Shown: in pieces, positions 10,950 through 63,007 of the stretch
Position numbering within the stretch: position 1 is the stretch's first letter
How the letters are laid out: the number at the start of each line of letters is the position of its first letter
NCBI GenBank assembly: GCA_002269645.1
Contig: NIVC01003908.1
Location: 6,187 to 70,186 of the forward strand
DNA from: Macrostomum lignano
Taxonomy: Eukaryota
Reading direction: 5' to 3'
DNA: 64,000 nucleotides
Program-made: the position numbers and the translations under genes
The notes under the pieces: model-generated
What the model was told of the DNA's origin: nothing
The model's input: only the letters and a program-made list of their open reading frames with translations
Databases searched by the model: none

Positions 10950-12490
10950 ATCAGCATAAACTTAAAGAAGACCCTATGGCCGCCATGCTCGGTCGTGTCG
11001 CACCTGGTGCCAGTTTTCTAAGGACAGCTCGCGTCCGATTCGAGTGCTGCATCCCAACGAAAAAGCGCCATCTCAATCGCATTCTCGACAGCCGGAAAAC
11101 AAAGTTGCACTGCAACCGTGGTCGCGGTACGCAGTGCCGAGACAACATCAACCACCAGTTTGGAGTTGGACGTTAAAAGAAACAAAACCTACAACAAGTT
11201 TCTCGTGGACACTTGAGCCTCGGTTTACATCGTTTCACCTCAACTATTTAATGCACTTGTTCAAGATACAAACGTTCGTTTAATTACTACTGCCGGAGCC
11301 ACCATACCAGTTTGCATGTCGGTCCTACTGGATGTCTCAATCCGCAGTTTGCGTCGCGCCTTCTAGTGGACCTTTCTCGTGGCCTCAGTGGCAAAATCCA
11401 CCATTGGTTACGACTTCTTGGCTCACCATGGATTAGTTGTCTATTGCCGGCGCAAACACGATTTAGACTCAGAAACGGGATTATCTACTGTTACCTGGTC
11501 AATTTCAAATGTTCATTGTAGCCCATTCACTGTATCGGTTGGACTGCCACCCAACCTGGATTCTCGGACGAGCACGCTGTTCACAAATTGTTGCAGATTG
11601 TTTTTTTTAGTTGAAGGCAGAGCCCTTCCGCCAGCTTCAGAGGTCAAGCACGACACTGTTCTCCGGCTAGACACTGGTAGTGGACAACCGGTTCACTTGC
11701 GACCCCGGCAACTGCACCCTGCAAAAATGCAGGCTACAAAGCAGGAGTTGCAGCAACTAATCGATGCAGGCTACCTCAGACCATCCTCAAGCGCTTGGTC
11801 GTCACCCCTCCACATGTCACCCAAGGGCTGGCGTCAATGCGGTGACTATCGCGAACTGAACAAACCAACAAATCCTGACAACTATCCGGTTCCACAATTT
11901 CAAACCTTCACTACGTACCTACGGAAGCACTGTGTTTTCAAAGTTAGACCTCGTTCGCACCTTTCATCAAATTCCACTCGTAGAAGAAGATATCTGCGAA
12001 ACCGCTATCACCACACCGTTTGGATTGTTAAGTACACTCGAATGCCCTTCGGCCAGCGAAATGCAGCGCAAACATTCCAACGCTTCATCGACTCTGTTTT
12101 TTTTGACGGACTGTCATTCGTCATCTCTTGCATCGATGATGTCTTGATCTCCTCGAATACTAGGGAAGACCACTACTCGCATTTGGAACAAGTTTTGGAC
12201 CGCCTACGAACACACGGACTGCAGGTTCACCTGAAGAAATGCGAGTTCTTTCAATCTGAGGTAGATTTCCTCGGCCACCGCGTGACTCCAGAAGGAGTAA
12301 GACCTCTCTAGAATTAGATTTAAATAATCACTAACTGGCCGACACCCACTGATTCAAATGCACTTCGGCGCTTGCTCGGAGTCGTCGGTCTCCATCGCCG
12401 ATTCGTTTCAAACTTCGCTGACCGCATCTGTCCGCTGCAAGACCTACTCATTACATCACTAGTCAGCAGGAAACTTCCAATTGACAGAGT
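10950..12490 (+). pseudogene. Ty3/gypsy retrotransposon protease-RT, decayed
   Basis: FLVDT*ASV (protease, ~11200), [48 protein letters not shown] and FLGH. Confidence 0.9.
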
Positions 12491-12954
12491 AGCACATAAA
12501 CTCTTTTTATGTGAATGATAAATGAGCAACTACGGGACAAAATGAGATTCAAAGCTGATTTAGCACGAATGGAGAGATTACTGGCTCCGATACTAAGTGA
12601 AGAGCATCGCCAAAAAATACGTTTTCGGAACGATCAAGATCTGTAAAATCCGTCGTGGGAGGAGCAACAAAAGATTTGGAATTTTTGGCTGCCAAAGCAC
12701 AAGAGGAACAGGCCGCCAAAGCTTGAACTACCATCAACTTGGAGCAAGGATTTAAGCACGCCTCCAACGCCAGCACCTGAAAATAGGAACAAAAGGTTCA
12801 TTTTTTCCGGAATCCCCGATAACGACAACTCTGTAAAAAGCTCGTTATCGTGTAGTTAAAACAAAAACTTATTGAGACTCTCGGGTATATAAGCACCAGC
12901 CCGGAGCATCTGCGAGCGCCCGTACCTGCAAATTTTTCTAAACAGACAAGAGAC

Positions 12955-13699
12955 ATGGAGACAGTGCAAGACTTTAACTGCGTCAAGCGAGAGCTGCTGG
13001 CACTCAAACCGCGAGGTCCGAGCTTCAACGGGGTTGAAACGTTTGACATTGAATATGACGAACAGGGACCTCTCTACTTGGCCAATGCGGTCCCTGTTTT
13101 GATCGTCAAAGGTGTGCGTACTGACAACGAAGGTCGCGAATTCATCATCATTGCACAAAAACACATTGAAAGCTGCATACCCTACACTTTCAACACTGTG
13201 GCGGAGCACCTTTCCAGCGAAAGTCTAGCTCTGCTGGGCTACAACCCAGCATTTGGAGGTGACAGTGCAGCGTTTGGGCTGGCTCACGACTTTAAAATGT
13301 ACGACCAAAACGGTAGAGGATTACAAAAACAAGAGCGGCTACTACAGGATTCTGTTTACTCTCGACACGGCCGTGATTCGAGACGCTGTTTTGACCGCCA
13401 TGCCAAAAATTCAACAGCTACAGTTTGTCGAAGAAGCCAAACAGGCATTCGATCGTTGCTATTGGACGCCACCTCCAAAAATCAAGGTAGGCTCCAAGAA
13501 AGTAAGCAAGAAAGCAAAGAAACCACCAAAGCTTGTCAAGGAGAAGCAGCCAAAGGCGCCTAAAAATCAGGCCAGAAAGCGACAGCATCAATCGAAACTA
13601 GTAGCAGCCAAAGAATCAAAGAAGCGGTCGAAAGCCCCCAAGAAGGATACGAAAGTAAAAACTGCCGAAAAATCTACTTGCAGAACGTCGAGTGTGTGA
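12955..13699 (+). pseudogene. Unknown protein with Lys/Pro-rich C-terminal tail, apparently one gene split by a frameshift near 13310
   Basis: ORF 12955 (globular, ...FKMYDQNG) overlaps ORF 13253 (VEDYKNKSGYYRILF...KKVSKKAKKPPK). TATATAA at ~12885 upstream. Confidence 0.5.
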
Positions 13700-14148
13700 A
13701 CCGAGTGTTTTGCGCGAAATGGAGCCGCATGCCTGACTTGGACTGGGCGAGCGCACGGACATTTCGCAGACCAAGAGATCTTATCAATTTGCGAATAGGA
13801 AAATGTACAATCAACTTTTTTCAGCGTTCTTTGTCTGCAATTGTATTCGGTTGTCGCTCAGTCAACCCAGTTTTGCGTCTTTTTCCTCAATGTAAACCAA
13901 TTTCTGTTGTTGTTACCACTAGTACTTACCGCGCTGAAGTAGACAGATGGCCAAATTTTTTCCAAATTGCATACTCCGGGTCCCACTGGGTGAAGTGGGA
14001 GTGCGAAGTTTTCAATGGAATAGTAATAAAGTCTCCATTTCGCAAGGTGCAATGCGGAAAGAATGGCCGCCTTGTTTTTCTTGGAATACGAAGCTTTAAA
14101 GAGCTCTGTCAAATGTACGATCATGTGACTAGCGTTTTGCATGTCTAA
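13678..14148 (+). CDS. Divergent TATA-binding-protein-fold protein
   Basis: LQNVECV, TINFFQRSLSAIVFGCRS, WECEVFNGIVI and GRLVFLGIRSFKEL..YDHV..VL resemble the two TBP repeats. The start is uncertain (TTG). Confidence 0.6.
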   Translation: MQNVECVNRVFCAKWSRMPDLDWASARTFRRPRDLINLRIGKCTINFFQRSLSAIVFGCRSVNPVLRLFPQCKPISVVVTTSTYRAEVDRWPNFFQIAYSGSHWVKWECEVFNGIVIKSPFRKVQCGKNGRLVFLGIRSFKELCQMYDHVTSVLHV

Positions 14149-14288
14149 TCCATGTAGCTGTTGCGTAACTTTACTGTTTTACCACTGTACTGAATTTGTA
14201 TGTACGTACAAGCTGCTATGAAATTGTTTATAAATATATTGTGCATAAATTGCAGTGCACTGCAACCAACATCTTTGAGCTAAACAAA

Positions 14289-14645
14289 ATGACAAACGGA
14301 ATCTCCAGACTATGTTCTTGTCGCGGCGAGCTCGCAGAGCTCGCCAAAGCCCGTCCCACTCTTCGGCGGGCAATTATTCGAGGTGCAGGCAAGGAACTGA
14401 TTCATTGTCTCTGTGAATTGAGTCACAACGTACTCCGGGGAAATATCGATCTTTCTCCGAAACAGTATCTGCGATTAAAGCGATACAGAAGATCGTTGCG
14501 TGAATTGGCAGACACAAAATTGTCTATAAATAGGAAGAAGAATGTGCTTCTCTCGAATCCTCAAGTCGGTGGTTTTCTACCCATCCTTGCATCCGTTGCT
14601 GCACCGCTAATATCAAGCCTGTTTGGCGGACTACTTGGTCGCTAA
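14289..14645 (+). CDS. Maverick PW protein
   Basis: RRAII..A.KELIHCLCEL..NVLRGN..LS...L.RY...LR.LA and QVGGFLPIL followed by an amphipathic tail. Confidence 0.85.
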   Translation: MTNGISRLCSCRGELAELAKARPTLRRAIIRGAGKELIHCLCELSHNVLRGNIDLSPKQYLRLKRYRRSLRELADTKLSINRKKNVLLSNPQVGGFLPILASVAAPLISSLFGGLLGR

Positions 14646-14646
14646 A

Positions 14647-15392
14647 ATGAATAAATACGTTGTTGTACCAGAAGAAGAATTTAATAGACTAAGTCAAGGC
14701 GCACCCCGAGAAATTGCATCCAAAACAGAATAGGAAAACTCAGTGAATACAACACTCAACTCCAAAATAAACTAAGTCAGATCAAGCAAAAGAAGAGTAA
14801 TCGTTTTCCTGAACGACAACAACGAGTTTGGGACATGCTGACAGAAAGATACCCAAATTTGGAGTACAACAAGTCGTGGGAAATTGTATTTGATGGAAAA
14901 ACCTGGCCAGGAAGCAATATTTTCGATCTATTGAAGGAGATTACATCGAATGAAAGGCGCGACCGCCCAAGCCCAAAATATAGTACCGCTTTTTGGGCCC
15001 TGGCCGAAGAGGCAGATATTGCAAAAGCTCTACTAGGACGACGCCAACAAGAAGAAGTCAGTGTGAAAAAAGAAGTCGGCACGGATCCGGATCGAGACGA
15101 TTTTTTAGTCGAGCAAGCAATTGGAACTAATGATTTCTACAACGACTTCCACAAAGACCAAGCCAGTGGCCAGAATGAAGTTAAAAAATTTGAAGATCGT
15201 GGCAGCGATGCCTACAGGCATGCTTCATACCAACTTCGCGAACCAAAGAGGCGGCAGAAACCAGCAGTAAAATACGAGACGTTAAAAAAACTATACATTT
15301 TCATGATTTATAATCTGTTTTTGGATCATGGGTGCCGCAGCTGTAACTTCAAAGCTTTGCTCAGACAAACCGTCTGTGGAGTTCAAGTGTAA
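14647..15392 (+). pseudogene. Conserved Maverick gene between PW and INT (PM-like), frameshifted
   Basis: Begins MNKYVVVPEEEFNRL; continues WEIVFDGKTWPGSNIFDLL and ...P.....F. Confidence 0.55.
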
Positions 15393-15424
15393 TTACTTAT
15401 GCTGTGCATCGACTCTAGTCGCGA

Positions 15425-16489
15425 ATGAGGGTGAAAACCGCTCTTCGGAGAGTGTACGAACAGGGGGACGCCGCTTTTACAAATGCTGCCCGTGTATATC
15501 GGGAGGCCAAACGGCTGGTCCCCTCCCTGACGAGACGCCAAACCGACGAATGGCTGAAGACCCAATCGAGCTATACCCGGCACAAGAGGGTTAAAAGAAA
15601 ATTCCGAACCGGAAAAGTAATGTCGGGAGGCTTCATGGAAACTGTGCAAGCGGATTTGATGGACATGTCGCGATACGAACAATGGAATGATGGTCATCGA
15701 TATATTCTAGTTGCAATTGATGTGCTTAGCAAATTGGCTTTTTGCCAGCCAATAAAATTGAAAAGCGACACTCCAAAGGCTTTTGAAAGCATGATCAAAG
15801 ACTTCCCCATTAAGCCTTTATATCTACACGTTGATCGAGGTACCGAGTTTTATAACAATCGCATGCAGAACTTACTGAAAGCCCATAATATCAAAATGTA
15901 CAGTACAAACTCTGTATACAAGGCAAATATGGCTGAAAGGCTGATTAGGACTCTCCGAAAACGTTTAGCTCGCTACTTTGAGCATAAAAACACGTGGCGT
16001 TGGATCGACTATTTGCCAATATTGGTTAAAAGTTACAACACAGTACACTCTACTATTGATATGAAACCTTCGATTGTCGGTCTGCACAACCAAAAAGAAT
16101 TGTGGGAAAAGCTCTACAAGGATCCTGAATATGATGAACCAGTTTACCAAAAAGGGGACTTTGTCAGAATTTCAAAATCTCGTCGAGCCTTTGACAAGGA
16201 AGCATACGATATGTACAGCGAAGAAGTTTACGTTGTGTCTCAAGTATGCCCGGGACCGCCTCATTTTTATCGCATTTCCGACCTATCTGGAGAACAAATC
16301 GAGGGTCGATTCTACTATAATGAACTTTCAAAGACGGTTCGATCGGACCGCTTTGTTATAGACAAAATTCTGCGTCGCAATGTCGTCATCAATGGTGTTG
16401 CTCATCATTTCGTTAGTTGGCGCGGCTATCCCGAGTCGTTCAATGCATTTGTACCAGTTGAGGAAGTTATAAATATAAGACAAGGATGA
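15425..16489 (+). CDS. int: Retroviral-like (rve) integrase with C-terminal chromodomain, intact
   Basis: D(VQADL), D(HVDRGTEF), E(MAERLIRT); chromodomain IDKILRR...FVSWRGYPESFN. Confidence 0.95.
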   Translation: MRVKTALRRVYEQGDAAFTNAARVYREAKRLVPSLTRRQTDEWLKTQSSYTRHKRVKRKFRTGKVMSGGFMETVQADLMDMSRYEQWNDGHRYILVAIDVLSKLAFCQPIKLKSDTPKAFESMIKDFPIKPLYLHVDRGTEFYNNRMQNLLKAHNIKMYSTNSVYKANMAERLIRTLRKRLARYFEHKNTWRWIDYLPILVKSYNTVHSTIDMKPSIVGLHNQKELWEKLYKDPEYDEPVYQKGDFVRISKSRRAFDKEAYDMYSEEVYVVSQVCPGPPHFYRISDLSGEQIEGRFYYNELSKTVRSDRFVIDKILRRNVVINGVAHHFVSWRGYPESFNAFVPVEEVINIRQG

Positions 16490-16523
16490 ACACACATACA
16501 CTCGAAACGTGTAGTATATTACA

Positions 16524-17672
16524 ATGCATCTATTCCTACCTAGCAATGCGTGCGTTGAGCACTATCCTGAGAATAATTCGGCACATTATAGCATTAATTT
16601 GCCCGACACCCTCCACTTTCCGAATCATGAAGTCTGCATCGAACGGATCTACTTTTGTAAAGAATTCAAAACCGTCCCCGATAATCGAATGGTTGATGTC
16701 CTGACCAACGCTCCCGAGAATGAAGTGATTGACATTGAGGTGAGAGAAAAACCCGCCTCCACGTATAAACAGTTTGCGTCGGTTTCTCTCGCCGCGGGGC
16801 TATCAACAGCCAACGAAGTGGTTGATGCAATCATCGCCGCTCTAAAATATGAGCAAGACGATAATGCGATGATTTGCATTGAGCGTTCACAGGAAGGCCA
16901 AATTTCAATTGTGAACAAATCATGGTACGGTGCGAACATTAGGCTGTCCAGTAATGTGTGTAGCATGTTTAAAAAGGTTGACGACGCTGGAAATAAATCA
17001 AATATCGAAGTAACGACTTTTTTATTAAACCCAAGAAATTCTTTAGTATTCGCTATAGAATTGGAGTCCTCCTCCATAGAGATTCCCATGACTCTAACGT
17101 TTGAAAAGAGTGTCTGGCCTTCTAGAACGTCACTGCGGATTGCTAAAGGGTTCTACCGCACGCCTGACGAGCTCTTAAATTATGTTAATGGAGCGCTTTG
17201 GAGCGTCGTTTCAAAGCTCCCAATAAGTCCAGCGACGAGAGTGGATGCATTCCGCTACAACCCTTTTCTGAACCGGTGTGAGTACAAACCCATTGAAAAC
17301 ATTTTATTCGACATTGGAGAGCTTGCTGCCATTCTCGGCTTTCGCGAAGATGTTTTCAATGAAACTCCAAAGACGAAACGACCAATCGATTTAACAAATG
17401 GTGTACAAACTATGTACATCTATTCAAATATTGTCGACTCTGCCATTGTTGAAGACGTCAAAGTCCCCCTGCTTGGGGCAATTTATTTGAATGAAAATGT
17501 ATACGGCGAACGAGAGTACTGCGAGTTTGTCAATCCATCCTACTTACCGTTGGTGAAACACCCATTCAAAACCATTGAGGTGCAAATCTGTGACGACATG
17601 GGCAAGTTAATGGATCGGATTCTTCGAGGCAAAACTGTTTTATCGATCAACATTCGTGAAATTAAGCTATAA
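16524..17672 (+). CDS. Minor capsid protein (penton, PX)
   Basis: LFLPSN...YPENNSAHYSINLP at the N-terminus; MYIYSNIV....V.D..VPLL and EF.NP.YLP at the C-terminus. Confidence 0.9.
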   Translation: MHLFLPSNACVEHYPENNSAHYSINLPDTLHFPNHEVCIERIYFCKEFKTVPDNRMVDVLTNAPENEVIDIEVREKPASTYKQFASVSLAAGLSTANEVVDAIIAALKYEQDDNAMICIERSQEGQISIVNKSWYGANIRLSSNVCSMFKKVDDAGNKSNIEVTTFLLNPRNSLVFAIELESSSIEIPMTLTFEKSVWPSRTSLRIAKGFYRTPDELLNYVNGALWSVVSKLPISPATRVDAFRYNPFLNRCEYKPIENILFDIGELAAILGFREDVFNETPKTKRPIDLTNGVQTMYIYSNIVDSAIVEDVKVPLLGAIYLNENVYGEREYCEFVNPSYLPLVKHPFKTIEVQICDDMGKLMDRILRGKTVLSINIREIKL

Positions 17673-17716
17673 ATAAAGAAGTTTTCACGAATAAAAGGTA
17701 GCAACTGATCGACAAT

Positions 17717-18085
17717 ATGCCTTCAATCTTGATCGGAGGAGCTTTACCGGTATTTTCCGGTGCACAGCGCGGCAACGGCCTGTTTAGCAGCATTGCCCGA
17801 TTTGCCCTGCCAATTTTAAAGAGTTTTGGCAAAAATATTCTTCGCCACGGAACACGAGCCCTAGCTACAACAGTTAACGACACACTCGATCAAGGCGGGA
17901 ACTTGAAAGAAGCAGCATTGCGTAACTCTGTCCAGGCAGCTAAAGATGCTTTCAAGGACACTGTCACACAACGAGGTAGCGGCAGACAAAGACGAAGAAA
18001 AATGACTAGCAAAAAAACGAGAAAAAGACTGCAGCATTCTGACATTTTCGACTCTATAAATAAAAAAACCCGTGCCAATAACTGA
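17717..18085 (+). CDS. Maverick PZ protein
   Basis: LPVFSGAQRGNGLFSSIARFALPILKSFGK; QRGSG followed by a basic tail. Confidence 0.8.
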   Translation: MPSILIGGALPVFSGAQRGNGLFSSIARFALPILKSFGKNILRHGTRALATTVNDTLDQGGNLKEAALRNSVQAAKDAFKDTVTQRGSGRQRRRKMTSKKTRKRLQHSDIFDSINKKTRANN

Positions 18086-18128
18086 TCTGTCTATTAGAGC
18101 ACCACACTAAGCCGCTGTTGAAAGAAAA

Positions 18129-19411
18129 ATGACTGAGTGCCTGTGTACAAAGTCGGAATTCGAGCTATTTGCTCCTCGCGCCCACCAAATTGCAGCAATT
18201 AGCGCTACCACTGAAGAAGTTCACCCTGTTGCCAGTGTTGAAAATGCCAGCGTGGTCGAATTTAGGATTGTTGGTGGTGAGACGTTTATCGATCTTAACG
18301 ACATTGACCTCGAGATTAAGGCCCGCGTTAGGCAATCTAATGGCACAAATCTTGCTGCTGATTCGAATGTTGCGCCGGTCAATTACGTCCTTGAAAGCAT
18401 GTTTAAAAACGTCACGTTGACAATCAACGGGACACACGTAGAGTCGAGCAATAACAACCACGCTTACAAGGCCTATATTCGCACGTGTTTGAATTACGGA
18501 CACGATTCAAAAACCAACCAACTGAGAATGATGGGCTACGCAAAGGACGCTGGAGGTCAAATGGCTGTGGTTGGAAATCCTGGCTTTGTAGCCCGCAAGG
18601 CGATGGCGGCAAACTCACGCACCTTTCACCTTTATGGACCTCTTAGTTTAGACTTTTTTGTTACCAACGACCGAATGCTACTGCCATACACTGATATGGT
18701 AATTACGCTGACCATGCACAATTCCGGGTTCGTTCTGGAAAACCACGCGGACGGGGTTGATGCGCGGCTAGTACTCGAGAGTGCCAAACTACATGTGCGC
18801 CGCGTCAAGGCAAACCCCCAATTGGCATTGGAGATTGAAGAACAACTAGGCAAACAGAATGCAATCTATCCGATTGAGCGACTTGTTGTGCAAAATACTT
18901 CAGTGGCTGGCGGTGTTCGGACATGTAAATCAATAATATATTTCCTGAACAAAAGCCTAAACTAGTGGTTGTTGGCATGGTGAACAGCGGCGCATACAAC
19001 GGTGTGGCTACACATAACCCGTTTAATTTTGAGCCATTTGGTGCCGACAGTGTCGCTCTGTATAAGGACGGAGTCAGTCTGTGTGGACAACCGTTTACTC
19101 CTCGATTCGGTGTTCATAACTATGCTCGCGAGTATGCCATGCTACTAAAAAGCCTAGGAAAGATGAATCGGGACCTGGATATTGACGTATCATATTCCGA
19201 CTATGGAGCTGGCTACTGCTTCTTCGCCTGGAATCTCATGCCCGACATGGAGCTGGGCGGGCATAGCATGCCTCGCGAGCGAGGGAATCTGACGCTACAA
19301 ATAAAGTTTTCTGCTGCCTTGGCCGCAGGAATCAACGTGTTGGTGTTTGGCTACTTTGACAATACTGTGCAAATCACTCGCGGTCGTCAGGTTATTCTAG
19401 ACTACGTGTAG
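18129..19411 (+). pseudogene. Major capsid protein (PY), single frameshift near 18927
   Basis: CTKSEFELF, HPVASV, IDLNDIDLEI and SMFKNV; P.LVVVGMVNSGAYNG...NPFNF in the second frame. Confidence 0.93.
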
Positions 19412-19458
19412 AAACAAACATTTTTTTATTCCCAAATAACGGCCATATTCATGCCGAT

Positions 19459-19908
19459 ATGAATAGTCTAGATATATTAGAACGTCTAATACTGCCTGTC
19501 CCTGTTCGAGTAACACCCGTTGACAGGATTCCGCAGCCTGTTTATCCTGCTGCATACGTGATTAACTTTGACACTGGCAATCTACCAGGCACTCACTGGG
19601 CTTTAATTTGTCTTCATGCCGATGAGAGCGTGAAATTTTTTGACCCCTTGTGTATCGATCCTGTGCCAGATTTATTAAAGTTGTGGATCGCAAAGTATGT
19701 CTCCGCGGAGGTTGCAATGAACCGGCATCCTGTACAGCATCCGCTGAGTGTGACCTGCGGGGCTCATGTAATATTTGTGGCTGAAAAACACTTTCTGGAG
19801 GGTCTGTTAATTGAAAAAATATTGCGCGACTGTTATAGCACAAATCTTTACGAGAACGACTTGATGGTGCAGAATCACTGTCTACAAATAAAGCAGCATC
19901 ATCCATAA
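19459..19908 (+). CDS. Adenain-like cysteine protease
   Basis: YVINFD...PGTHW, FFDPL and VQHPLSVTCG. Confidence 0.92.
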   Translation: MNSLDILERLILPVPVRVTPVDRIPQPVYPAAYVINFDTGNLPGTHWALICLHADESVKFFDPLCIDPVPDLLKLWIAKYVSAEVAMNRHPVQHPLSVTCGAHVIFVAEKHFLEGLLIEKILRDCYSTNLYENDLMVQNHCLQIKQHHP

Positions 19909-19931
19909 ATATGATTGGGCGGCCTATCAAA

Positions 19932-20559
19932 ATGTATCAAACAATAGACCCTGATTCTTTAAAATTTGCCCCCAAAACGTTGGCAATTTTTGCTGGGGTG
20001 GCTCAAAGCGGCAAGACCACACTTGTAAAAAACCTATTAAGACAAGAATTTTTTCAAGATCCGAAGCCGATTCGCGTAGACTGGTTTGGTCATTATCCGG
20101 ATCCTGAACTGTTTGAATTGCCGTACCCTGTAAATTTTCGTTCGTGTACATTTGATCCTGAACAATGTCCCTGAACCAAATATTCTGCTTGTCGTCGACG
20201 ACCAAATGCATGCCATGGAAAAGAGTGGCGCTTTTACAACTTTTTTCACGCGCAAAGTCTCCCACGTGGGGTTCCGACTTTGGTATCTTGTGCAAAACCT
20301 GTTTGCAAAGGGTATGGAGCACCGAACTCAGTCGCTCAATTCGAACTACCTTGTTTTATTCCGCAATGTACGGGATGCCAGCACAGTGTCTCATATTGCA
20401 AGGCAGCTGGTCCCCACTAATCCGAAAAGTTTTGTCAAAACGTATGAGGATGCTACTCGCGACCCCTACTCATACTTGATTGTAAACTGTTTGCAAAATG
20501 CTCCTGCTCGCTATTATTCAAACGTTTTGGGTCGTCACCCAATTGTGTATGCTAAATAA
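19932..20559 (+). pseudogene. A32-like packaging ATPase, frameshift near 20160
   Basis: GVAQSGKTT; LLVVDD; FTRKVSH; YLVQNLF; SLNSNYLVLFRNVRD. Confidence 0.92.
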
Positions 20560-21214
20560 ATCGTATACGTATCAAAGCTCGGCCGGCTTTTTGTGTAAAT
20601 ATATATATACGCCTTTTGAAAACTTATTTGGGAGAGGGGGTTGGGGGATGACGTAATTGTCTCGGAGTGTCGACGAGGGCTGAATTCTAGAGAGTGAAGT
20701 ATGGAAGGGGTGGATATAACAGTGTGGACAGCAGCCATTTACTGGCTGACTGACTCATCATGCCTCCGCGCGGGGGCCGCCAATTAATTGTGAGGGGCGA
20801 CAGAATATTTTCTTGGATGGGTGGGCGCTACAGTTCTGTGCGTACACGAAGTTTGGGTTTGATCGAACAGCTATGGGGTGGGCGGACGCTACAATTCTGT
20901 GCGTACACCAATTTTGGGTATGATCGACAGTTAATTCTGCGCTACACCAATGCTGCATTGTGCGGGGCTGGGGGCGCGCGCGTTTCTACGTACAACGGCT
21001 ATGGTGAAGCGCTAATTATGCGTACTATATTGTACTCGTCGCTTCTGTACGATACAGTGTACACTGATTACATGTATAATTAGATTTACATGAGAGCATA
21101 AATGTCTCACATAATGACTCTGGACCAATTAGAATCGGTCTAATGTATTTAGATAGGCGTTGAATTTGCATTGGCTCTGACACCCACCTCACCTCCAAAA
21201 CCCAGCTCTAACTG

Positions 21215-21650
21215 CACATTACGTAGTGAAGCGATTTGACCAACATAGCCTTGTACGTTCGATCAAACGATAAGAACGCATCGTTGCCAATCAGCTTCAG
21301 ATTTCGCTTCTCTAATAAATACCGGTGCACAGACGCGCGAAAACACGTGTCAGTGTACTTACAGCATATGGCTTTCCATCAGCTGTTTTTAACTGAACGG
21401 ACGAACAGGCGTAGATAGGAGTTGAGATACCTCACTGGCATATTCTCGATGTGATCAGGTAAATTCTCCGCGCGTAGAAACTCTTTTAGTTTGCGAATAT
21501 GCAATTCAGTTTGCTTAACCGTCGACTTCGTTTACTTTCTTGCTCCACATGTAGGCCAGCTTCTTCTTCTTCGGTCAATTCACGAAACAGGTTTCCAACG
21601 TGATCTTCCGGTGTAGGATTGCGTAGTTCCTCATCAATTAGCCTCTCTTG
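21215..21650 (-). pseudogene. Crypton-type tyrosine-recombinase transposon, N-terminal relic
   Basis: Manual reconstruction across small indels: FRELTEEE...TVKQT...LKEFL...IENMP..YLNSYLRLF...VKTADGKPYAVSTL..VFASVHRYLLEK...I..DAF. Confidence 0.65.
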
Positions 21651-42533: not shown

Positions 42534-43249
42534 TGTAATTGACACGACTCAATTGATTTTCTCAAGCAAACACAGTACCACAGAAAGCGAAAAAAAGCCA
42601 TCTGGGTCGCTGGCTGGTTTGACTTATTTATTTAGATAAAGCGAAAAGACAATGACGCGTGGGGGTGGGGGCGCCCAGTGTACGAGCGGATGTACATTGA
42701 ACGACAGGGCGGAGCGGGGTAAAAGGTAAGTCGGCTTTCTTTTAATGTAAATAAAACCATTTGGCCTAGTAGAAGGCATGAGGGGGCTTTTGGGACAAAA
42801 TTTTTCATATCCTCCATAATCCCATTAAATCCATCCATATTATCCCCGACAGAATCAGAAAAAAGGGGGGTCGCACTCGCTCACAAAACGTCCTCCATAA
42901 TCCCATTAAATCCATTCATATTATCCCTGACAGAATCATGAAAAAGGGGAGGGGCCGCACTTGCTCCGAAAACTTCGAACATAATCCCATTAAATCCATC
43001 CATATTATCCCTGACAGAATCAGAGCAGGTGTCAACTGATACCTGTTATGCTCACTGTGGACACCTGTTATGCTCACTGACACTGACATCATCCACCGAC
43101 ATCCACCCATAACATTTCTAAAACAATCAGAAAATAATCTGCATTCTTCTCCCCACATTTGATTCGCAACGTGCGACCAGATCCCTAAAACTTTAAATTC
43201 CCTAACCCAGGGTCCTCACCCTTTAAAAAAAATTAAATTCTCAATAAAA

Positions 43250-43489
43250 ATGTTTCCAGTTGTCTCTCCAGGTTCTTATTACAAAACGCACGAGCCTAAT
43301 TACAAGAGTAAGTACCGATACAAACTTGAATGCAGCGAATACATGAGAAAATATTGGCCCAACGTTGATATCAATGTCCCTAATATTAATCTAGCTCTCC
43401 AAAGACATTGGTTTCATAAGTATGGAGTAACCTATGTAAAAGATTATGACAGCTACTATAACTTTGCAGAAATCATTAGGCAATTGTGA
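43250..43489 (+). CDS. 79-aa TIR-encoded protein (left TIR copy)
   Basis: Two substitutions relative to 9023-9262. Confidence 0.6.
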   Translation: MFPVVSPGSYYKTHEPNYKSKYRYKLECSEYMRKYWPNVDINVPNINLALQRHWFHKYGVTYVKDYDSYYNFAEIIRQL

Positions 43490-43493
43490 TTTC

Positions 43494-43772
43494 TTACATT
43501 CTCTCAATGATTAACGTCAATACAAACCCTTCACCGTTAAAATCAACGCCCATGCTTCAGTCTCAAACTGTAGCACAATCTCGTGAATCTCCTTATTACT
43601 CAATACAACTCTTTTCACTGGATTTGGTTTCTCTACCACCATCTGTCCTCCAGCTACAGAGTTGGAGATGTTGTACAAAATATTCGTTCGCTTTCCCTTA
43701 AATACCCAATCAAGACTGAGATTAGTTCTGATTAGAATATTCAAACCCTTTACAATGTCTGCTATATTGGGT
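43494..43772 (-). pseudogene. Penton 3' fragment
   Basis: PNIADIVKGLNILIR...LQFETE matches 8155-9018. Confidence 0.9.
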
Positions 43773-47973: not shown

Positions 47974-48213
47974 CTACAATTGCTTAATGATTTCTGCAAA
48001 GTTATAGTAGCTGTCATAATCTTTCACATAGGTTACTCCATACTTATGAAACCAATGTCTTTGGAGAGCTAGATTAATATTAGGGACATTGATATCAACG
48101 TTGGGCCAATATTTTCTCATGTATTCGCTGCATTCAAGTTTGTATCGGTACTTACTCTTGTAATTAGGCTCGTGCGTTTTGTAATAAGAACCTGGAGAGA
48201 CAACTGGAAACAT
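47974..48213 (-). CDS. 79-aa TIR-encoded protein (right TIR copy)
   Basis: One substitution relative to 9023-9262. Confidence 0.6.
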   Translation of the reverse strand: MFPVVSPGSYYKTHEPNYKSKYRYKLECSEYMRKYWPNVDINVPNINLALQRHWFHKYGVTYVKDYDSYYNFAEIIKQL

Positions 48214-48969
48214 TTTTATTGAGAATTTAATTTTTTTAAAGGGTGAGGACCCTGGGTTAGGGGATTTAAAGTTTTAGGGATCTGGTCGCACGTTGCGAAT
48301 CAAATGTGGGGAGAAGAATGCAGATTATTTTCTGATTGTTTTAGAAATGTTATGGGTGGATGTCGGTGGATGATGTCAGTGTCAGTGAGCATAACAGGTG
48401 TCCACAGTGAGCATAACAGGTATCAGTTGACACCTGCTCTGATTCTGTCAGGGATAATATGGATGGATTTAATGGGATTATGTTCGAAGTTTTCGGAGCA
48501 AGTGCGGCCCCTCCCCTTTTTCATGATTCTGTCGGGGATAATATGGATGGATTTAATGGGATTATGGAGGATGTGAAAAATTTTGTCCCAAAAGCCCCCT
48601 CATGCCTCATGCCTGCCCTCATGCCCTCATGCCTGAATAAATATGAACTTTTCCGCCACATGCCTCTTCCTGCTAATAAATATTTAACTCAAAGCTCAAT
48701 TTCCCCGCTACCGCGCCATTTACTTCCCCCAGTACATGTAGAATAATTGAGGCATAACTCCACACATTTTAATAAAGAATACGGCTAAGCCAATGTACTG
48801 TATTTTATTACGTAGAGATAGCAACAATAATAGCGCGGAAGCAAGTTTACAGTGGATGGTAACATGCAAAAGTAGACGGCATAAGAAGGCAAAACAACAA
48901 GTAACCTAGTCAATGTAGTCAACAAGTACTCGTAACTCACGATGCGAATAGTGAATAAAATTTACCGTA

Positions 48970-49002
48970 AGTAGAATGCATGAGGGGGCTTCTGGGACAA
49001 AA
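48970..49002 (+). repeat. 33-bp family A terminus stub
   Basis: AGTAGAATGCATGAGGGGGCTTCTGGGACAAAA. Confidence 0.9.
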
Positions 49003-49188
49003 GTTGCCTCGAGTTGCCTCGCGGGGGGCGGTCGGGGGTGTTTCTAGTGACTTTATTACGTGTTTGATTTCTATTTGTGCTTATTCGTTATGATGCATTT
49101 TATTATAGTATGAATGCTATTTGCGTTTGCTTACTCGTTGTTTTGCCATCTTTTCATTCACCCTCTACATGTTAACACATACTACGGT

Positions 49189-49821
49189 AGTAGAATGCAT
49201 GAGGGGGCTTCTGGGACAAAATTTTTCACGTCCTCCATAATCCCATTAAATCCATCCATAACAAACCGCTTATACTTTCCCGGGCCATTCTAACGGCCCC
49301 TGACGCTTGTGTAGCGGCCCGCGCCGCGGATTCTGCCTTATAAACTTTCTTCTCGAATCCCAATTCCCTATACCAAGTGTCATCTTTAAACTCAACCTCC
49401 GCATCTTTGTGAACTTGCATGACCACTCTCATTACAGTGAGATCATAGGCTAGTTTGACAGAGAACATTTTTTATCTGGCTTACTCGCATCAGGTGTCTC
49501 AGAATGGCCTCTTTTAGTAAAGACGTTTTCTAGAAAGTAATTGTAGGTATCCACACTTTGCGTGCTCACAGGGAATACCACAGGTTCTGCTGCTGCACCT
49601 TTCCATTTGTAATAAAACTTATTATTTGCTGCCGTCACATTGGGAACGTTTGACCAACCAGTGAAGTCGTTAAGATAGACATGGTAATTAGCACCTGGAT
49701 CCAGGCTAATCGCCTGCTCTAATTTTTGAATAAATATTCCGTTTGAGTCATTAATTCGCCCAGTTATTGTAATAGGAATGCTCTCCTTGGAGTGAGAAAC
49801 AATATTGTTTAGTCTTTTGGA
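49189..49821 (-). pseudogene. Family A terminus (~72 bp) fused to the N-terminal two thirds of the penton gene
   Basis: AGTAG start at 49189; ORFs 49226-49468 and 49450-49824 match 8155-9018. Confidence 0.9.
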
Positions 49822-53345: not shown

Positions 53346-54096
53346 TTTTCAGCTTGATCACATAAAAACACAACTGAAGCTTGGGCAATATAAAATACAC
53401 TATTTACACTATGATGTATTATCATTGGTTGCCAAAACCAAAACTTTTTTGGCAGAAATTTTGGTCGCAAGATTTGGCAGAAATTTTGGCAGAAATTTTG
53501 GCAGCCAATGAGAAAGCGACAATGGGTGAAAAGAATGCAACTTGCAGGCTCATGCCAGATGCAGAAAAAAGTCTACCCACATGAGTCAGAATTGTAGTTA
53601 CTTGAGAAGCTCGGCATCGCACTGCACATGCACACTGAAAGAAACTATGTTCCTTTTTTCTTTAAAGCAGAATGACTCAACATTCTTTCTAGCTTTTCGC
53701 ATCAAGAATGAAGCAAAGCAACTAACCTAACCCTAACAGTTTAGCAGTTGAGTCAATAAGAATTTATTGTTCCTTTATCAATAGGTTTTGAATATCAGCA
53801 TGCTGCAGCAGGAATTGAGCACCTCTTAAACCCCAACTCTAAAGCACGGCCATGGCAGTTTTTTCTCTATTTTCATGACTCAGTGCGCATGTAAGAAGTC
53901 GCTTAGGTGGCTTGATAAAAACCCGCTTTAGTTTTGGAAGCAATACAACACACGTTTATCAGACAGACTAAAGCAAACAGAGCGAACATATAAATCACAC
54001 AACTCAGCAACAACGAAAAGGTAAGAAATAAGAGTTTTGTTCTTGTGTTGATTTTGATACTAAATAGTTATAATGCCCTACATTTTAGAATCCCGT

Positions 54097-54708
54097 ATGG
54101 AGGCAGCAATGGCATCATTCGAATCCGACCTCGATAGTCTTATCAAGAAGATTTTTTGTAGTGGGGATTTAAAGCATTGTAAGAAATGGATAGGAGAATA
54201 CAACAAGGTTGCTAGAAAATTTAATAGGAAGAAGTTTGCTATTCCAACTTTTCGAGGTAGATTGGAGAGAGTGGACAAGACAAAGGAACGAATAGCAGAA
54301 GCTGCTAAAATACTGCGGGATTCGATGGAGCATCAAGAGCCGGGAGAGATTAATGAATTTATGGACGGAGAGTATCAATTTCAGGATGCAATTACAGAAC
54401 TTAATTCCATTGATAAAATGATAAACGAGCTACAGTGCCGGGGCTTGCAGTATGGAATTAAGTCTGGTCAGATATTAATAAGAATGAAGCTTTCATTGAG
54501 TGACGAGGAGTATAAAGTATTTTTGTCTAGACTACGCTTTAAGTCGGCGTGGGGGAACTATTTAGTCCGAGTGGCTCGTCTAAGCACAGCACATCCAATT
54601 CTGTGGCGTTGTGGCATCTCACTGTTTCGCCTACGTTCTATAATCAAGTACGCTGAGAAAGCCCTGGAGATGCTGGAGGAAGAGGAGGAAGATGCACTTC
54701 TGATCTGA
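54097..54708 (+). CDS. ~203-aa helical protein (DUF3102/HTH-like), intact
   Basis: Homologous to 46801-47424. TATAAAT at 53989; likely start MEAAMA (54097). Confidence 0.7.
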   Translation: MEAAMASFESDLDSLIKKIFCSGDLKHCKKWIGEYNKVARKFNRKKFAIPTFRGRLERVDKTKERIAEAAKILRDSMEHQEPGEINEFMDGEYQFQDAITELNSIDKMINELQCRGLQYGIKSGQILIRMKLSLSDEEYKVFLSRLRFKSAWGNYLVRVARLSTAHPILWRCGISLFRLRSIIKYAEKALEMLEEEEEDALLI

Positions 54709-54767
54709 CGAAAATCTTATTGCGCGCGTTGTGAATCATAACATCTGACTCTCATTATGCTGACTAT

Positions 54768-55182
54768 TCTTTTTCACATCGAATACTGCAGTATCTGGAT
54801 CTTTTTTGCTCGTTGCTTTTTCACATCGAATACTGCAGTATCTGGTTCTTTTTTGCTCGTTGCTTTTTCACATCGAATACTGCAGTATCTGGTTCTTTTT
54901 TGCTCGTTGCTTTTTCACATCGAATACTGCAGTATCTGGTTCTTTTTTGCTCGTTGCTTTTTCACATCGAATACTGCAGTATCTGGTTCTTTTTTGCTCG
55001 TTGCTTTTTCACATCGAATACTGCAGTATCTGGATCTTTTTTGTTCGTTGCTTTTTCACATCGAATACTGCAGTATCTGGTTCTTTTTTGCTCGTTGCTT
55101 TTCACATCGAATACTGCAGTATCTGGTTCTTTTTTGCTCGCTGCTTTTTCACATCGAATACTGCAGTATCTGGTTCTTTTTC
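54768..55182. repeat. 9 x 47-bp tandem array with a 12-bp perfect palindrome ATACTGCAGTAT in each unit
   Basis: CACATCGAATACTGCAG at 54775, 54822, 54869, 54916, 54963, 55010, 55057, 55103 and 55150. Confidence 0.97.
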
Positions 55183-55291
55183 TGCCTATTGTAATATCGC
55201 TTATACATTTCTAATTGCTTAATCGTGTGGATGCCACAATAAATTTATAACGTCATTACATAATTTTCCTGCTAAATTTATTTTATAAAAA

Positions 55292-58200
55292 ATGGAACAA
55301 CTCAGAAAGATGAGTGATGAAGAATTTGAACAATACATTCAAGCTGAGCGGTTTCGGCGTCAGCAGCAAAAGCACACAGATAATGAGCCTATAGCGGAGT
55401 CCAAAGAAGATGAAGTGGCAGCTCCGCAGATTGGTGATGAAATAATACTACATAAATCCTTTAGAGAGAAGTATAATAAGAAGTCAGAAATTTCAGAGTA
55501 CGTCATTAGGAATGTTAATGAAGGTTATATAACAAAGGTTTTTATTCAGTATGAAGATGCAATTAAAGCAGTGTTGGAGAAAGTTAGAGATGGTGGACGG
55601 AGTAAGTTCAACTTGCATTTTGAACTAGAATTCAAAAAGAATTTTAACGAAGACATTCCTCCATTCACAGTCTATGACAATGAAAGTGGATTCTACAATA
55701 TTCAGTCAGATTCACAGTATGACGCTGCCCTTACCGAAAGACAGAAGATATTGGAAAAGTTCATTGATGAGTTCTGTGAGAAGGGATCAGATAATGTCTT
55801 TGTGCAGATAAAATCTATCTACATCAGAGTTGCCAAGGTTTCTAGCATTCAGGGAGGATCCTTCTTTACTAACAATGAAGTTAAAAAATGTCTATCAATT
55901 CTTAACATTCAGAATGATGATGAGAAATGCTTCCTCTGGTGTGTATTAGCTGTTAAACATCCACAAAATAAAGATGGTTATCGAGTGTCAAAATATAAAC
56001 CATATGAAAAAGAACTTAATCTCACCGATATCCAATTCCCCATGAGAATAAAAGATATAAAAAAGTTTGAAAGACTAAATGAAGAGTTTGCTGTTAATGT
56101 GCTGTATTATGAAGGTAAATTCCCAGATACACTACAACATCTCTATGTCTCACCTCATAATCAACGAACTTATGTAGTAGATTTACTATACTTGGAGGAA
56201 GATGGTAAGACTCATTATTGTCTGATAAAAAATCTTACAACATTAGTTTCAAAACAAACTGGAAAGCGTGTAAATCACAAGTCATTTTTATGCAGAACAT
56301 GCATGACTGTTTACACAAGTGAAACCGTGTTGGCCGAGCACTCAAGGTTGTGCGGTAAAAATGCACCTGGTCATTATAAATTACCTAAGGAAGAATCGAA
56401 GCTGAAATTTAAAAATCATATATTCAAACTAAAGCTACCCATCGCTATCTATGCTGACTTTGAAGCAACAACTGAACCCATTGAAGCACAAAGTAAAAGC
56501 TTCACTAAGATTTTAGACAAAGAGTCATATACTCTAAAAGTAGCAAATCAGAACGCAATAGCTTACGGTTTTTATATCCATTCTGAGTTACCCGAGGTAA
56601 TTAATGTTGAAGTTTTTTCAACAGCTTTTTCAACAGCTATTTGCTCCTGTGTATCTATGGTTGTTAGTTCATATCGGTACGATACTGTATTGAATATTTA
56701 TTGAACTTTCTAGAAAGGGATACGCACAGCTATTTGCATTAACAATATTAATCAATATTATGTATCTGACAATTACTATATAAAGTACTAAAAGTACGAG
56801 CTATAAACTATAAACAACAATTAAATCGAAGTATGAAGGATATTGTGGCACAGATGCCAAGGAAAAATATGTTGATAGAATGGTTGAAATTCATCAACAA
56901 ATTAAGAATGGTCTGAAGGAGCCTAAGCATATTAATCATAATTTGACAGCGCAAGAGGAGGCTTCTTACTGTAAGGCTAAACAATGCTACATATGCGAGA
57001 AGGAGTTTGATATGGTTCCAGATATGAAGGTGCATGTGAAGGAAATTGACAGTAAAGTTACTATAGAATCTTGGTGCAAAAATGTCTGAACAAGAGCAAT
57101 AATATAAGTAAATATAAGATCACAAAGCAACAATGGAAAGAGTTTTACAGGGCTGAAAAATGTGCGAATTGTAAAAATGACTTCACACTTAAGCTAGGTA
57201 AGGTAAGAGAACATTGTCACTATAGTGGCAAATATAGAGGGGCTGCCTGTAAATCCTGCAATGCTCTCGAAAGTAAGAAGCGAGTAATCCCAATCTACTT
57301 CCAGAATGGATCCCACTATGACTTTCACTTCTTAGTGACACACTTAAAGAGCAAAGAGATCATGGAGGATAAATTATTTCCTCCACTATCTAAAACTTCT
57401 GAAGAGTACATTTCTCTCGAGTTTGGATGTAACAAAGTAGTACTGAGGTTCCTAGATTCATACAGGTTCTTGGCTTCCTCGCTGGATATCTGCGCAAAGT
57501 CCCTGAAGGATGAAGACTTCATCATAACAAAGAAATACTTTAAAAACGACAGCGATTTTCAATATGTTAAGCGCAAGGGTGTATTCCCATATGAGTATAT
57601 CAGAAGCTTTGGAAGATTAGCAGAAACTGAGTTACCACCATTGAAAGAGTTTTACTCGAGGTTGAAAGGTGAAGACATTTCTTCAGATGAATATGATTTT
57701 GCAAAACAAATGTGGAAAACTTTTAATTGTAAGAATTTGGAGGATTATATGATGCTGTATCTTAAGGTTGACGTTCTATTATTAGCAGATGTATTCGAAC
57801 GCTATAGAACATTCTTCCTGAAACACTTTGAGATTGATCCAGCCAGATGCTTCTCAGCACCAGGATTGAGTTGGAATGCTGGGTTGAAGAAAAGTAAAGT
57901 TGAGTTAGACTTGCTGGCGATATCGATATGATTCATATGATTGATAGTGGAATAAGAGGTGGATTTAGCGGAGTTCTAGGGTCACGATATGTAAAGGCAA
58001 ATAATCCTTATCTTCCAGGCTATGATTTAGAAAAACCAACTTCCTACTTACTTTACGTTGATTGTACAAATCTCTATGGTTATAGTATGTTGGAACCCCT
58101 TCCTTTTTCTGACTAAATGGGAAGCTGATTCCAACTATTATAAAAATCCTCCTGAAGGACGGGGCTGTCTTGTTGAATGTGATCTTGAATATACAAAAGA

Positions 58201-59335
58201 ATCAAAAAAGAAAACGTATGCCTTCCCATTAGCACCTGAAAGTACAACTGTGTCAGAAAGTGAATTGAGTGAATATCAGAAAGGATGTCTAGAAGTCGAA
58301 ATGAAAAAGATTGGAAAAGTTCCTAAATTGATCCTTAATTTAAAAAATAAAACAAAATATATCGTACATCATAAGCTATTGCGATTCTATGAAGAGATGG
58401 GCTTGAAAGTGACAAAAGTACATAGGACGATTTCATTCAATGAAAAGCCATGGTTAAAGGAGTATATCGAGTTTAATACGATAGAAAGAAAGAAGGCAAA
58501 AGAAGCAAAAATTGAGTTCGAAGACAATCAGTTCAAAATGCTTAATGTAAGCATCTTTGGCAAGACAATGGAGGATGTTAAAAAGAGAAAGCGATTTGAG
58601 TTGCTGACAAGTGAGGATGAGATATCTAAGATAATATCCAAGCCAGATTTCATAGACTTCAAAATCTTCAATGAAAATCTAATTTGCATTCACCAGCGAC
58701 CTAAGAATATCCCTCTTGGAACAAAGCCAACATACGCTGGACAAGCAATTCTGGATCTCTCGAAATTGCATATGTATGAAACATTTTACAAAGTTTTCAA
58801 GTCCAAATGGGGGGATAATGTTGAGATTGTTACCTCTGACACCGACTCATTCATTCTTCATATAAAGACAGAAAATATTTATAAAGACATTGCTCAGATG
58901 AAGGAGCATTTCGATTTGTCGCTGTATACAAAAAATCTTCCGATTGATTTACATGATATGACTAATTGTGGAAAGCTGGGAACATTCAAGGATGAATTGG
59001 CAAAATATGATTGCATAATGACAGAAGTAACCGCTCTAAGATCGAAAGCATATTCATTTAAAACAGTTTATGTCAGCACTCAAAAGGAAGGGAAGGAAGA
59101 GAAAAAATTAAAGGGAATCTCAAAGTCAACAGTGAAGCATCATGTACAATATGATGACTATAGAAATATACTACTTGATTATAACGAACCAGTCTATAGG
59201 AAAGTGTATAGCCTTAGATCAGACAAGCATAACATGACTTTAATAGAACAAAATAAGAAGGCTATTAGTCCTTTCGATGACAAAAGATACATTGAATCCA
59301 ATGGAATTATAACACATCCTCATGGATTCAAATAA
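55292..59335 (+). pseudogene. polB: Full-length protein-primed PolB, disrupted by a solo LTR and three frameshifts
   Basis: IQND.EKCF.W, IYADFE, VREHCHYSGKYRGAAC..CN, RFLDSYRF, KGVFPYEY, YVDCTNLYG, N.SIFGK, TSDTDS and FDDKRY. Confidence 0.97.
56605..56819. mobile_element. 215-bp solo LTR inserted in pPolB
   Basis: TGTTG...CAACA with 5-bp TSD ATTAA (56600-04 and 56820-24). Removal restores the frame EVIKSKYEGYCG. Confidence 0.9.
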
Positions 59336-59337
59336 GT

Positions 59338-59559
59338 TTAAAAAACCAAACAATTCAATTGCTTAAGAAGTTTCTTGCGCTGATCATTAAACTCAACATA
59401 CTTCCTGATCTCTTTTATTTTTTTAACTAACTTGTCGATTTCAACTTCAATAAATGCTTCTGCAAAAACAATAGCAGTTTCAAGAAAACATTTGCGATCA
59501 CTTAATTTATCAATATATCCATAATCCGGTTCTATTATTCCACGATGTGTATGCACCAC
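59338..59559 (-). CDS. Small coiled-coil ORF, probably with an upstream part starting near 59644 after a frameshift
   Basis: 73-aa ORF convergent with pPolB; T-run-CTAG-A-run-ATG start motif at ~59642. Confidence 0.4.
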   Translation of the reverse strand: MVHTHRGIIEPDYGYIDKLSDRKCFLETAIVFAEAFIEVEIDKLVKKIKEIRKYVEFNDQRKKLLKQLNCLVF

Positions 59560-59667
59560 CCTAAAGTTATTTATTTTATTTCTCTATCAATGCGCTTTAT
59601 TTCATCTTGGTATGCATTTAGGAGAACTTTTATTGCAGCCATTTTCTAGAAAAAAAATTATACAATA

Positions 59668-60378: not shown

Positions 60379-60410
60379 AGGATAGATGTGTTCATTTTTA
60401 TCAATTATTT

Positions 60411-61790: not shown

Positions 61791-62217
61791 TTTAATTGCT
61801 GCAAAATTTCATTATAGCTATCTCCTTTATCGATTCGGTGTAAAAAGTACAGCGACATTTGGCCACAAAATTTCTTATCAAAAGTTTGAATTTGTTCTTC
61901 CATGTCTCCACATATTCTATTCTTTGTGTGATTAAACTTTTCCATAATTTCCTGTGTAGGTGGTAGTGCATAGGAATCAAAAAAATAAACCTTATCAGGA
62001 GCTGAAAATATAGCTGAATGATGTATACCCGTTCTTTCGAAGTGTGAATATTTGTCATAAAGTAACCATACTGTGGTAAATCAACAATTTCATCTCTCAT
62101 GGCATAGCGAAATGGTTTTAACTTGAGATATTTTGCCCAATTTATCAGATCAATATTAGTCGTAGTGTCAGTACCAAACATTTGTTTAAATGCATTCCAT
62201 CTCTCAGCTTCGCTCAT
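61787..62217 (-). pseudogene. Adenain-like protease, one frameshift near 62030
   Basis: The shifted frame gives GIHHSAIF...VYFFDSYALPP...IQTFDKKFCG; its TGA overlaps the fibre ATG. Confidence 0.85.
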
Positions 62218-62226
62218 TTTTAACAC

Positions 62227-63005: not shown

Positions 63006-63007
63006 TT

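Follow-up and report, generated by a model that had tools for sequence, protein, structure and literature searches.

The window analysed here, a 64,000-nucleotide stretch of Macrostomum lignano contig NIVC01003908.1, contains a TBP-like open reading frame (ORF) at positions 13678..14148 of the + strand, the product of which is almost certainly a highly diverged TBP homologue of a Polinton/Maverick family. The ORF comprises 156 codons in the window and 159 in sibling copies, with three codons missing near 14046, and lies within a + strand frame that is open from stop to stop over 194 codons (13564-14148). The four motifs on which an earlier note, made from the letters alone, had based its comparison with TBP are real and all fall within this single frame, and the position that it gave the ORF is likewise borne out, with PW and the integrase-capsid-protease-ATPase block following directly downstream. 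Position 13678 is occupied by TTG, with no in-frame ATG back to the previous stop at any of 30 loci, and neither this missing start codon nor the conserved site resembling a splice acceptor was picked up in the note; the ORF would be coding from 13684 if 13678-13683 forms a splice acceptor. Searches of the same genome returned 101 matches to the ORF among 108 candidates, and these copies fall into two groups, family A (~95% alike) and family B (~73% alike).

The structural block (14289..20559, + strand) encodes PW, ORF234, an integrase with a chromodomain-like end, PZ, a small basic ORF, PY, a protease-like ORF, and an ATPase. The integrase (15419-16489) matches Pfam rve with an E-value of 2.9e-8, the P-loop ATPase ORF gives weak Pfam matches, and PY, PZ, and the protease-like ORF give none; PW, PZ, PY, and PRO are provisional labels, in part carried over from the earlier note, and no Pfam match names these proteins. 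A terminal-repeat-like segment (20724..21227) matches, in inverted orientation and at 80-85%, the left end of a different family A copy. Only this right-end TIR segment was found in the window, and the place expected for the left arm is taken up by a reverse-transcriptase fragment (11367..12311, + strand). The copy in the window is decayed, with frameshifts in PY, the ATPase, and the upstream gene U. A family B copy of 10.56 kb is flanked by ~680-bp TIRs that are 97% alike, and carries between them Fic, two small ORFs, U, the TBP-like gene, and the structural block, with a family B Fic-domain gene (L080:1730-2533, Pfam E-value 7e-14) located beside the left TIR. No tblastn match to a protein-primed DNA polymerase of the B type and no long ORF that might encode one were found between the TIRs of the family B copy, and the family B element is best called a polymerase-less Polinton derivative; the absence is less certain for family A, as the left arm of the window copy is not intact. 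Fragments of other Polinton-type elements, with polymerase-like ORFs, occupy window positions 1-9000 and 54000-64000, in which no second TBP-like frame scored. A repeat of ~81-84-nt units, present in both orientations, was observed at window positions 9378-9727, 42768-43772, and 47976-49820, and also interrupts family A copy L024.

Comparison of families A and B shows the TBP-like gene to be under purifying selection, with a dS of ~1.9, a dN of 0.14, and a dN/dS of 0.074, synonymous sites being near-saturated in this comparison. The two halves of the ORF yield similar dN/dS values (0.066 and 0.082), compared with 0.9-2.3 for shifted and reverse control frames. Among the best-scoring loci (the best 30 of the 101 matches), 24 have kept an uninterrupted frame between the TTG and the C-terminal helix and six have a broken one; the earlier note had named a frame not conserved among copies as a possible refutation, and the frame proved to be conserved. 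Relatives of the protein occur outside its own genome, namely P0002 (65% identity), P0009 (61% identity), and P0013-P0015, and locus scans for relatives of the gene returned none in viral_contigs or metagenome_contigs.

A Pfam scan of the window ORF alone gave no match, nor did L002 match PF00352. PF00352 is the sole Pfam family matched by the family B protein (E-value of 8.5e-5, 22.8 bits, with the curated cut-off at 22.9 bits), with P0002 (E-value of 0.0024, 18.1 bits) and P0009 (14.1 bits) scoring lower and the close relative P0013 clearing the cut-off at 24.6 bits. Of the proteins scored against PF00352, the profile named in the earlier note, P0013 alone thus exceeds the curated cut-off, and the matches of clade members cover the C-lobe only. 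Using a profile of cellular TBPs built from 143 loci after de-duplication, all five clade members tested, the window ORF included, outscored 1000 of 1000 shuffles through the C-lobe, with no significant sequence match to cellular TBP for the N-lobe alone. The window ORF ranked first of 752 window frames with this profile (E-value of 0.09), and also with a profile of other Polinton TBPs (E-value of 8.3e-4). The least biased test of homology, a search of 1.84 billion proteins with a clade-only profile, gave four matches at E<=1e-3, these being three relatives, P0013 among them, and one canonical TBP, P0016 (E-value of 3.6e-4), which scores 165 bits with Pfam TBP. Furthermore, hhalign of the A/B profile against the family C and D Polinton TBPs described below gave 83.6% (E-value of 8e-6), with gene U as a control giving 0.4%. 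The likeness to TBP first noticed from the sequence is therefore upheld by both the shuffle test and the clade-only profile. An ESM Atlas search with P0002 gave no usable match, and a likeness to haloalkane dehalogenase, the sole result of a phmmer search of the window ORF against the PDB (E-values of 0.5-1), was rejected as chance.

One detail of the original comparison, the pairing of LQNVECV with LQNIVST of TBP, is probably out of register by five residues. P0002 has Ser at the Asn paired in this way, but retains the Asn of CVNxVF, which aligns with the Asn of other Polinton TBPs and with yeast N69 (model residues 1-159 corresponding to yeast 62-236); however, one MAFFT run that included the host TBP picked the original register.

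Structure prediction extends the similarity to the whole protein. AlphaFold, supplied with a 20-row alignment of Polinton TBPs that held no cellular TBPs, gave a model with a pLDDT of 85 and a pTM of 0.75, compared with a failed model (pLDDT of 37.7) from the single sequence; as this alignment included Pfam-positive Polinton TBPs, the fold is supporting rather than fully independent evidence. Foldseek (E-value of 7e-9) counted 44 PDB matches at E<=1e-3, with all among the matches listed being TBP structures, and a structural aligner gave a Z-score of 14.3 over 157 residues with an RMSD of 4.0, the next unrelated rows having a Z-score of 6.8. The two-lobed saddle is found along the entire length of the model, in agreement with the two-repeat layout and saddle fold that had been anticipated, albeit from an alignment-assisted model. 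The best viral structure matches (BFVD) are of the large-DNA-virus TBP-like kind, with an E-value of 5e-8.

In yeast numbering, the family A and B proteins retain equivalents of N69 (in the likely register), V71, T112, F116, G125, E186, E188, F190, G192, V213, and G216, and have lost those of F99, F207, N159, and P191, with Asn at the position of L114. Two of the four DNA-intercalating phenylalanines, F116 and F190, are therefore kept and two, F99 and F207, are gone, and of the paired asparagines N69 is likely kept and N159 is Thr in all Polinton rows. The DNA-facing equivalents of N69, V71, F116, F190, and V213 are kept across families that are 23-35% apart. All 20 Polinton TBP rows agree at the equivalents of E186, E188, and F190, with the two glutamates (human E284/E286) being those of the C-lobe contact with TFIIB. 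Most of helix H2 is absent, with ~16 alignment columns missing and seven residues of H2 left in the model. In the parts of PMC7221094 drawn on here, these two glutamates bind TFIIB, a basic patch of the N-lobe is the Mot1/TFIIA contact, and F207 (C.L5.1) is treated as a universal DNA contact; the basic H2 surface that serves Mot1, TFIIA, and Brf1 on the N-lobe of cellular TBP is not present in the Polinton protein. Among the ORFs of the element that were scanned, none matched the TFIIB family, with U and three other ORFs having no assigned family. Given the invariant glutamates and the lack of a recognised TFIIB in the element, the protein would likely act through host TFIIB, and its reduced grip on DNA is the main doubt on a predicted role as a promoter factor.

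The TBPs of families A and B are not the only ones encoded by Polintons in this genome. Of 330 candidates from a PF00352 search of the genome, scores were obtained for 150, every one of them above the cut-off, and besides the host TBP and a TRF2-like gene, Polinton structural genes were present in 14 of 16 regions taken from this search. Families C (L043-L058) and D (L053, L059-L068) account between them for well over 100 matches, and their TBP genes, positive by Pfam, are free-standing, have their own ATG, and are preceded by a different gene, with no U homologue. Family C also encodes a polymerase and a PC4 gene, and no polymerase match was found in family D copies. All Polinton TBPs here have Thr in place of N159, have lost P191, and carry a PR-type motif near F99. 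In a tree of 36 rows (7 of 49 eukaryotic, 13 of 64 archaeal, 2 host, and 14 Polinton), all Polinton TBPs fall on one side at 98/94, where long branches meet, such that a single origin is only suggested by these sequences. The host TBP core and the TRF2-like gene (L031-L042) each appear to be intronless over the core and are present in three copies.

Upstream of gene U, a textbook TATATAAG box (12886..12893, + strand) lies 69 nt before the ATG and is present in families A and B; this is likely the promoter, read by host TBP, of both U and the TBP-like gene, which has no box of its own. A second word, TATAAATA, recurs on the + strand of the structural block, lying 60 nt before the PW ATG (14229..14236), inside PW 122 nt before the next ORF (14525..14532, at the same place in family B), 56 nt before the PZ ATG (16468..16475), 49 nt before the small basic ORF (17668..17675), and 74 nt before the PY ATG (18055..18062). 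It thus lies 49-122 nt upstream of an ATG in five of the nine genes examined in the window, with a variant, TACAAATA, 49 nt before the ATPase ATG (19883..19890, + strand; the same variant is seen in family B); in family A, neither INT nor the protease ORF is preceded by a box. TATAAATA occurs five times forward and never in reverse in 7.9 kb of family A, and seven times and never in family B, where shuffling gives averages of 0.13 and 0.18, respectively; an unbiased scan also ranks it first among the 8-mers of each family. The word often runs on into AATAAA, which is absent at three of the five window sites, and part of the A/B signal may stem from overlap with a poly(A) signal. Further TATAAATA sites are found elsewhere in the window at 6401, 58876, 62251, and 63801.

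No TATAAATA was found in the family C and D copies examined. Family C instead has TTAAGAA (7 occurrences, 0.47 expected), with 4-7 forward and 0-2 reverse occurrences in nine further copies, and eight of eight [CT]TAAGAA sites lie 40-148 nt upstream of an ATG. In family D, [AT]TAAGAA is found 6/0 and 5/0 times forward/reverse, with an ORF following only three of the six and one of the five, and the statistics of the family D word, ATAAGAA, are swamped by tandem repeats. Each TBP lineage is accompanied by a different word, TATAAATA in A/B, TTAAGAA in C, and ATAAGAA in D, although this covariation across three related lineages could reflect shared descent. In L047 and L081 of family C, the PC4 and polymerase genes have ordinary TATATAAGG-type boxes and the structural genes and TBP have TTAAGAA, a distribution that suggests an early/late split and autoregulation of TBP in this family. 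The proposal in the earlier note that the protein redirects host Pol II to non-TATA viral promoters is not supported for families A and B, as TATAAATA, the word repeated upstream of their genes, is a consensus-type TATA box; it fits better the sister family C with its TTAAGAA.

Gene U (12955..13486, + strand) begins with an ATG at 12955, has a conserved part of 180 codons, and is frameshifted near 13312 in the window copy. It is under strong constraint, with saturated synonymous sites and a dN of 0.165, and gave no family or structure match; an ssDNA-binding OB-fold is no more than a conjecture for it. Homology between families A and B stops at a donor-like AAG/GTAGG after U codon 180 and restarts at TTGCAG/AAC, with the TTGCAG (13678..13683, + strand) conserved in both families and likely to be a splice acceptor or, less probably, a UUG start. 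The spacer (13487..13683, + strand) is a candidate phase-0 intron, 196-206 nt long in family A and 66-67 nt in family B. Its donor and acceptor motifs recur at all 30 loci, with each end in phase 0 and the spacer lengths of mixed frame; a second in-phase GTAAG, at 13502 on the + strand, is confined to family A. TTGCAG is the sole such acceptor motif common to A and B within 700 nt upstream; in a post hoc test, codon-level conservation of the donor was weak (p ~0.12), with a value of 0.05 for the acceptor. The starts assigned to P0009 and P0013 are internal methionines, as would fit a gene that lacks an ATG start.

In two copies, L080 (3480-4604) and L077, U and the TBP-like ORF share one open frame with a spacer that is a multiple of three, representing either a natural variant or an assembly error. 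An assembly error that hides a fusion in the window is unlikely, as the 197-nt spacer is free of indels in a short-read contig. Proteins of greater length that would represent a fusion were absent from 2347 candidates, which is weak evidence, and contigs of four sequencing runs over the region contained neither a joint of the candidate intron nor a loose end at the acceptor, three of these runs being RNA by guess only and possibly DNA, and contigs tending to drop rare forms. Programmed frameshifting from U was rejected, as the shift required differs between lineages (spacer modulo 3 of 2 in 15 and of 1 in 15 of the 30).

A start supplied by the host can also be envisaged. In the sections of PMC8629364 used here, the spliced leader of Macrostomum lignano ends in ATG and the top trans-acceptor motif is [T/C]TNCAG; the corresponding part of PMC12582326 describes flatworm leaders as able to supply a start codon, and acceptors shared by cis- and trans-splicing are known from this system. 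TTGCAG fits the acceptor motif, and the AUG of the leader would land in frame at 13684. The leader-plus-donor sequence ATG/GTAAG was found at 30 places in the genome (G000) and at none in a reversed control. Spliced-leader genes lie in arrays with a spacing of ~11-20 kb (G000 C1211-C1214, C3671, C3672, C3830, C4525, C4853, and C2205). We regard cis-splicing to U as a reasonable prospect for the start of the TBP-like protein, trans-splicing to the AUG-ending leader as a more tentative one, initiation at the UUG as rather unlikely, and some other means as improbable; cis- and trans-splicing could coexist.

Taken with some reserve, the reading we favour is that this reduced TBP homologue is the element's own promoter-recognition factor, predicted to bind TATAAATA and to recruit host TFIIB and Pol II, with a plausible role in transcribing the structural genes of the element. 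Under this scheme, host TBP would first fire the TATATAAG promoter of U, and the TBP-like mRNA would arise from the U transcript by splicing at TTGCAG, either in cis, giving a U-TBP fusion, or in trans, with the leader AUG in frame. The protein would then bind TATAAATA via its remaining N69, V71, F116, F190, and V213 equivalents and recruit host TFIIB, escaping regulators that grip the basic surface of the N-lobe, and the outcome would be a two-step programme, early then structural. Counting against this reading are the loss of N159 and of the F99 and F207 equivalents, and the fact that TATAAATA, as a consensus TATA box, should be read by host TBP unaided.

The same two observations favour an alternative that we consider unlikely, in which host TBP reads TATAAATA and the Polinton protein, having no specific DNA binding, biases transcription in favour of the element by engaging TFIIB or regulators of TBP as a decoy or adaptor. 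The loss of N159 and of two wedge phenylalanines out of four, alongside invariant TFIIB glutamates, is in keeping with this alternative; however, the DNA-facing residues listed above are retained, and families that differ in their TBPs also differ in their word, an observation not expected if the protein were purely a decoy.

Less probable again is a function not in transcription but in replication or packaging of the polymerase-less element, for example at its terminal repeats, with the protein forming the C-terminal, DNA-binding part of a fusion to U that is made by splicing. The phase-0 donor and acceptor conserved exactly at the end of U and the start of TBP homology, the single frame of L077 and L080, and the lack of a polymerase gene in the family B copy read from TIR to TIR all speak for this alternative. 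Against it, families C and D, which have no U homologue, encode stand-alone TBPs that begin with an ATG, the glutamates that contact TFIIB persist, and the TIRs of the B copy do not contain TATAAATA. A decayed, non-functional passenger or chance look-alike, suggested by the missing ATG, the damaged window copy without a Pfam match, and the six broken loci, is highly improbable and largely refuted for the family by a dN/dS of 0.074 at near-saturated synonymous sites, by relatives at 61-65% identity outside the genome, and by the retrieval of a canonical TBP with the clade-only profile, though it may hold for the window copy alone.

The promoter-factor reading can be extended, speculatively, to small Polintons in general, which would run TBP-promoter pairs of their own: one captured ancestral TBP may have diversified together with its word into three co-resident lineages, using host TFIIB and having shed the regulator surface, with the start codon in the present lineage coming from the host spliced leader, so that the structural genes would be expressed in step with the trans-splicing activity of the cell. 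A promoter factor encoded by a single gene and paired with a defined word would open to experiment the timing of capsid and packaging gene expression in Polintons, and with it the question of whether these elements still behave as viruses. A single host in which three natural variants of TBP go with three different words would illustrate the ways in which TBP specificity can be rewired.

Compared with cellular and archaeal TBPs (PF00352; PDB 1ytb, 3eik, and 2z8u), the Polinton protein has the same full-length two-lobed saddle (Z-scores of 13-14 over 152-157 residues) and equivalents of N69, V71, F116, E186, E188, F190, G192, V213, and G216, but is 15-20% identical, ~20 residues shorter, lacks most of H2, replaces F99, F207, N159, and P191, has no ATG, and is encoded by a mobile element. 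The flatworm trans-splicing system, with its AUG-ending leader and [T/C]TNCAG acceptor (PMC8629364 and PMC12582326, in the portions cited above), is one that the TBP-like gene may use. With other Polintons, Mavericks, and adintoviruses, as covered in the available part of PMC8502044, the element shares TIRs and an integrase, and probably also an ATPase and a capsid-type gene block, and differs in that the family B copy has no polymerase gene from TIR to TIR. The Fig. 5 legend of that paper (Starrett) labels a TBP in some adintovirus-like element, with no promoter word, mechanism, or splicing discussed for a Polinton-type TBP in the part available; our literature search found no paper devoted to Polinton TBPs or their promoters, with this legend alone mentioning one, and the supplements of the paper may name the element.

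Viral TBPs of herpesviruses and large DNA viruses are already known. In the excerpts of PMC12529657 considered here, the vTBP of beta- and gammaherpesviruses is a viral TBP mimic that serves late genes with host Pol II, a role the Polinton protein may share, and the two have in common a TATA-variant word and polar substitutions in the saddle (Asn for L114 in the Polinton protein). In contrast, KSHV ORF24 as described there is large and multidomain, has five viral partners, requires all four phenylalanines, lacks the TFIIB glutamates, and reads TATTWAA, whereas the Polinton protein, set beside ORF24, UL87, and BcRF1, is a bare 159-residue core that keeps the glutamates and is paired with the word TATAAATA. 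The TBPs of nucleocytoviruses (PMC7221094, in part) and poxvirus VITF-3 (PMC12917281, in part) are likewise diverged viral TBP folds; for the majority of viral TBPs, the former source describes divergence at the TFIIB contact together with a TFIIB supplied by the virus itself, in contrast to the protein of this 10-kb element, which keeps the contact. What this locus adds is an extreme reduction of TBP, three TBP-word pairs in one host, and an ATG-less start, with a minimal TBP that has the TFIIB contact and no regulatory helix being unlike both the herpesvirus and the large-DNA-virus versions.
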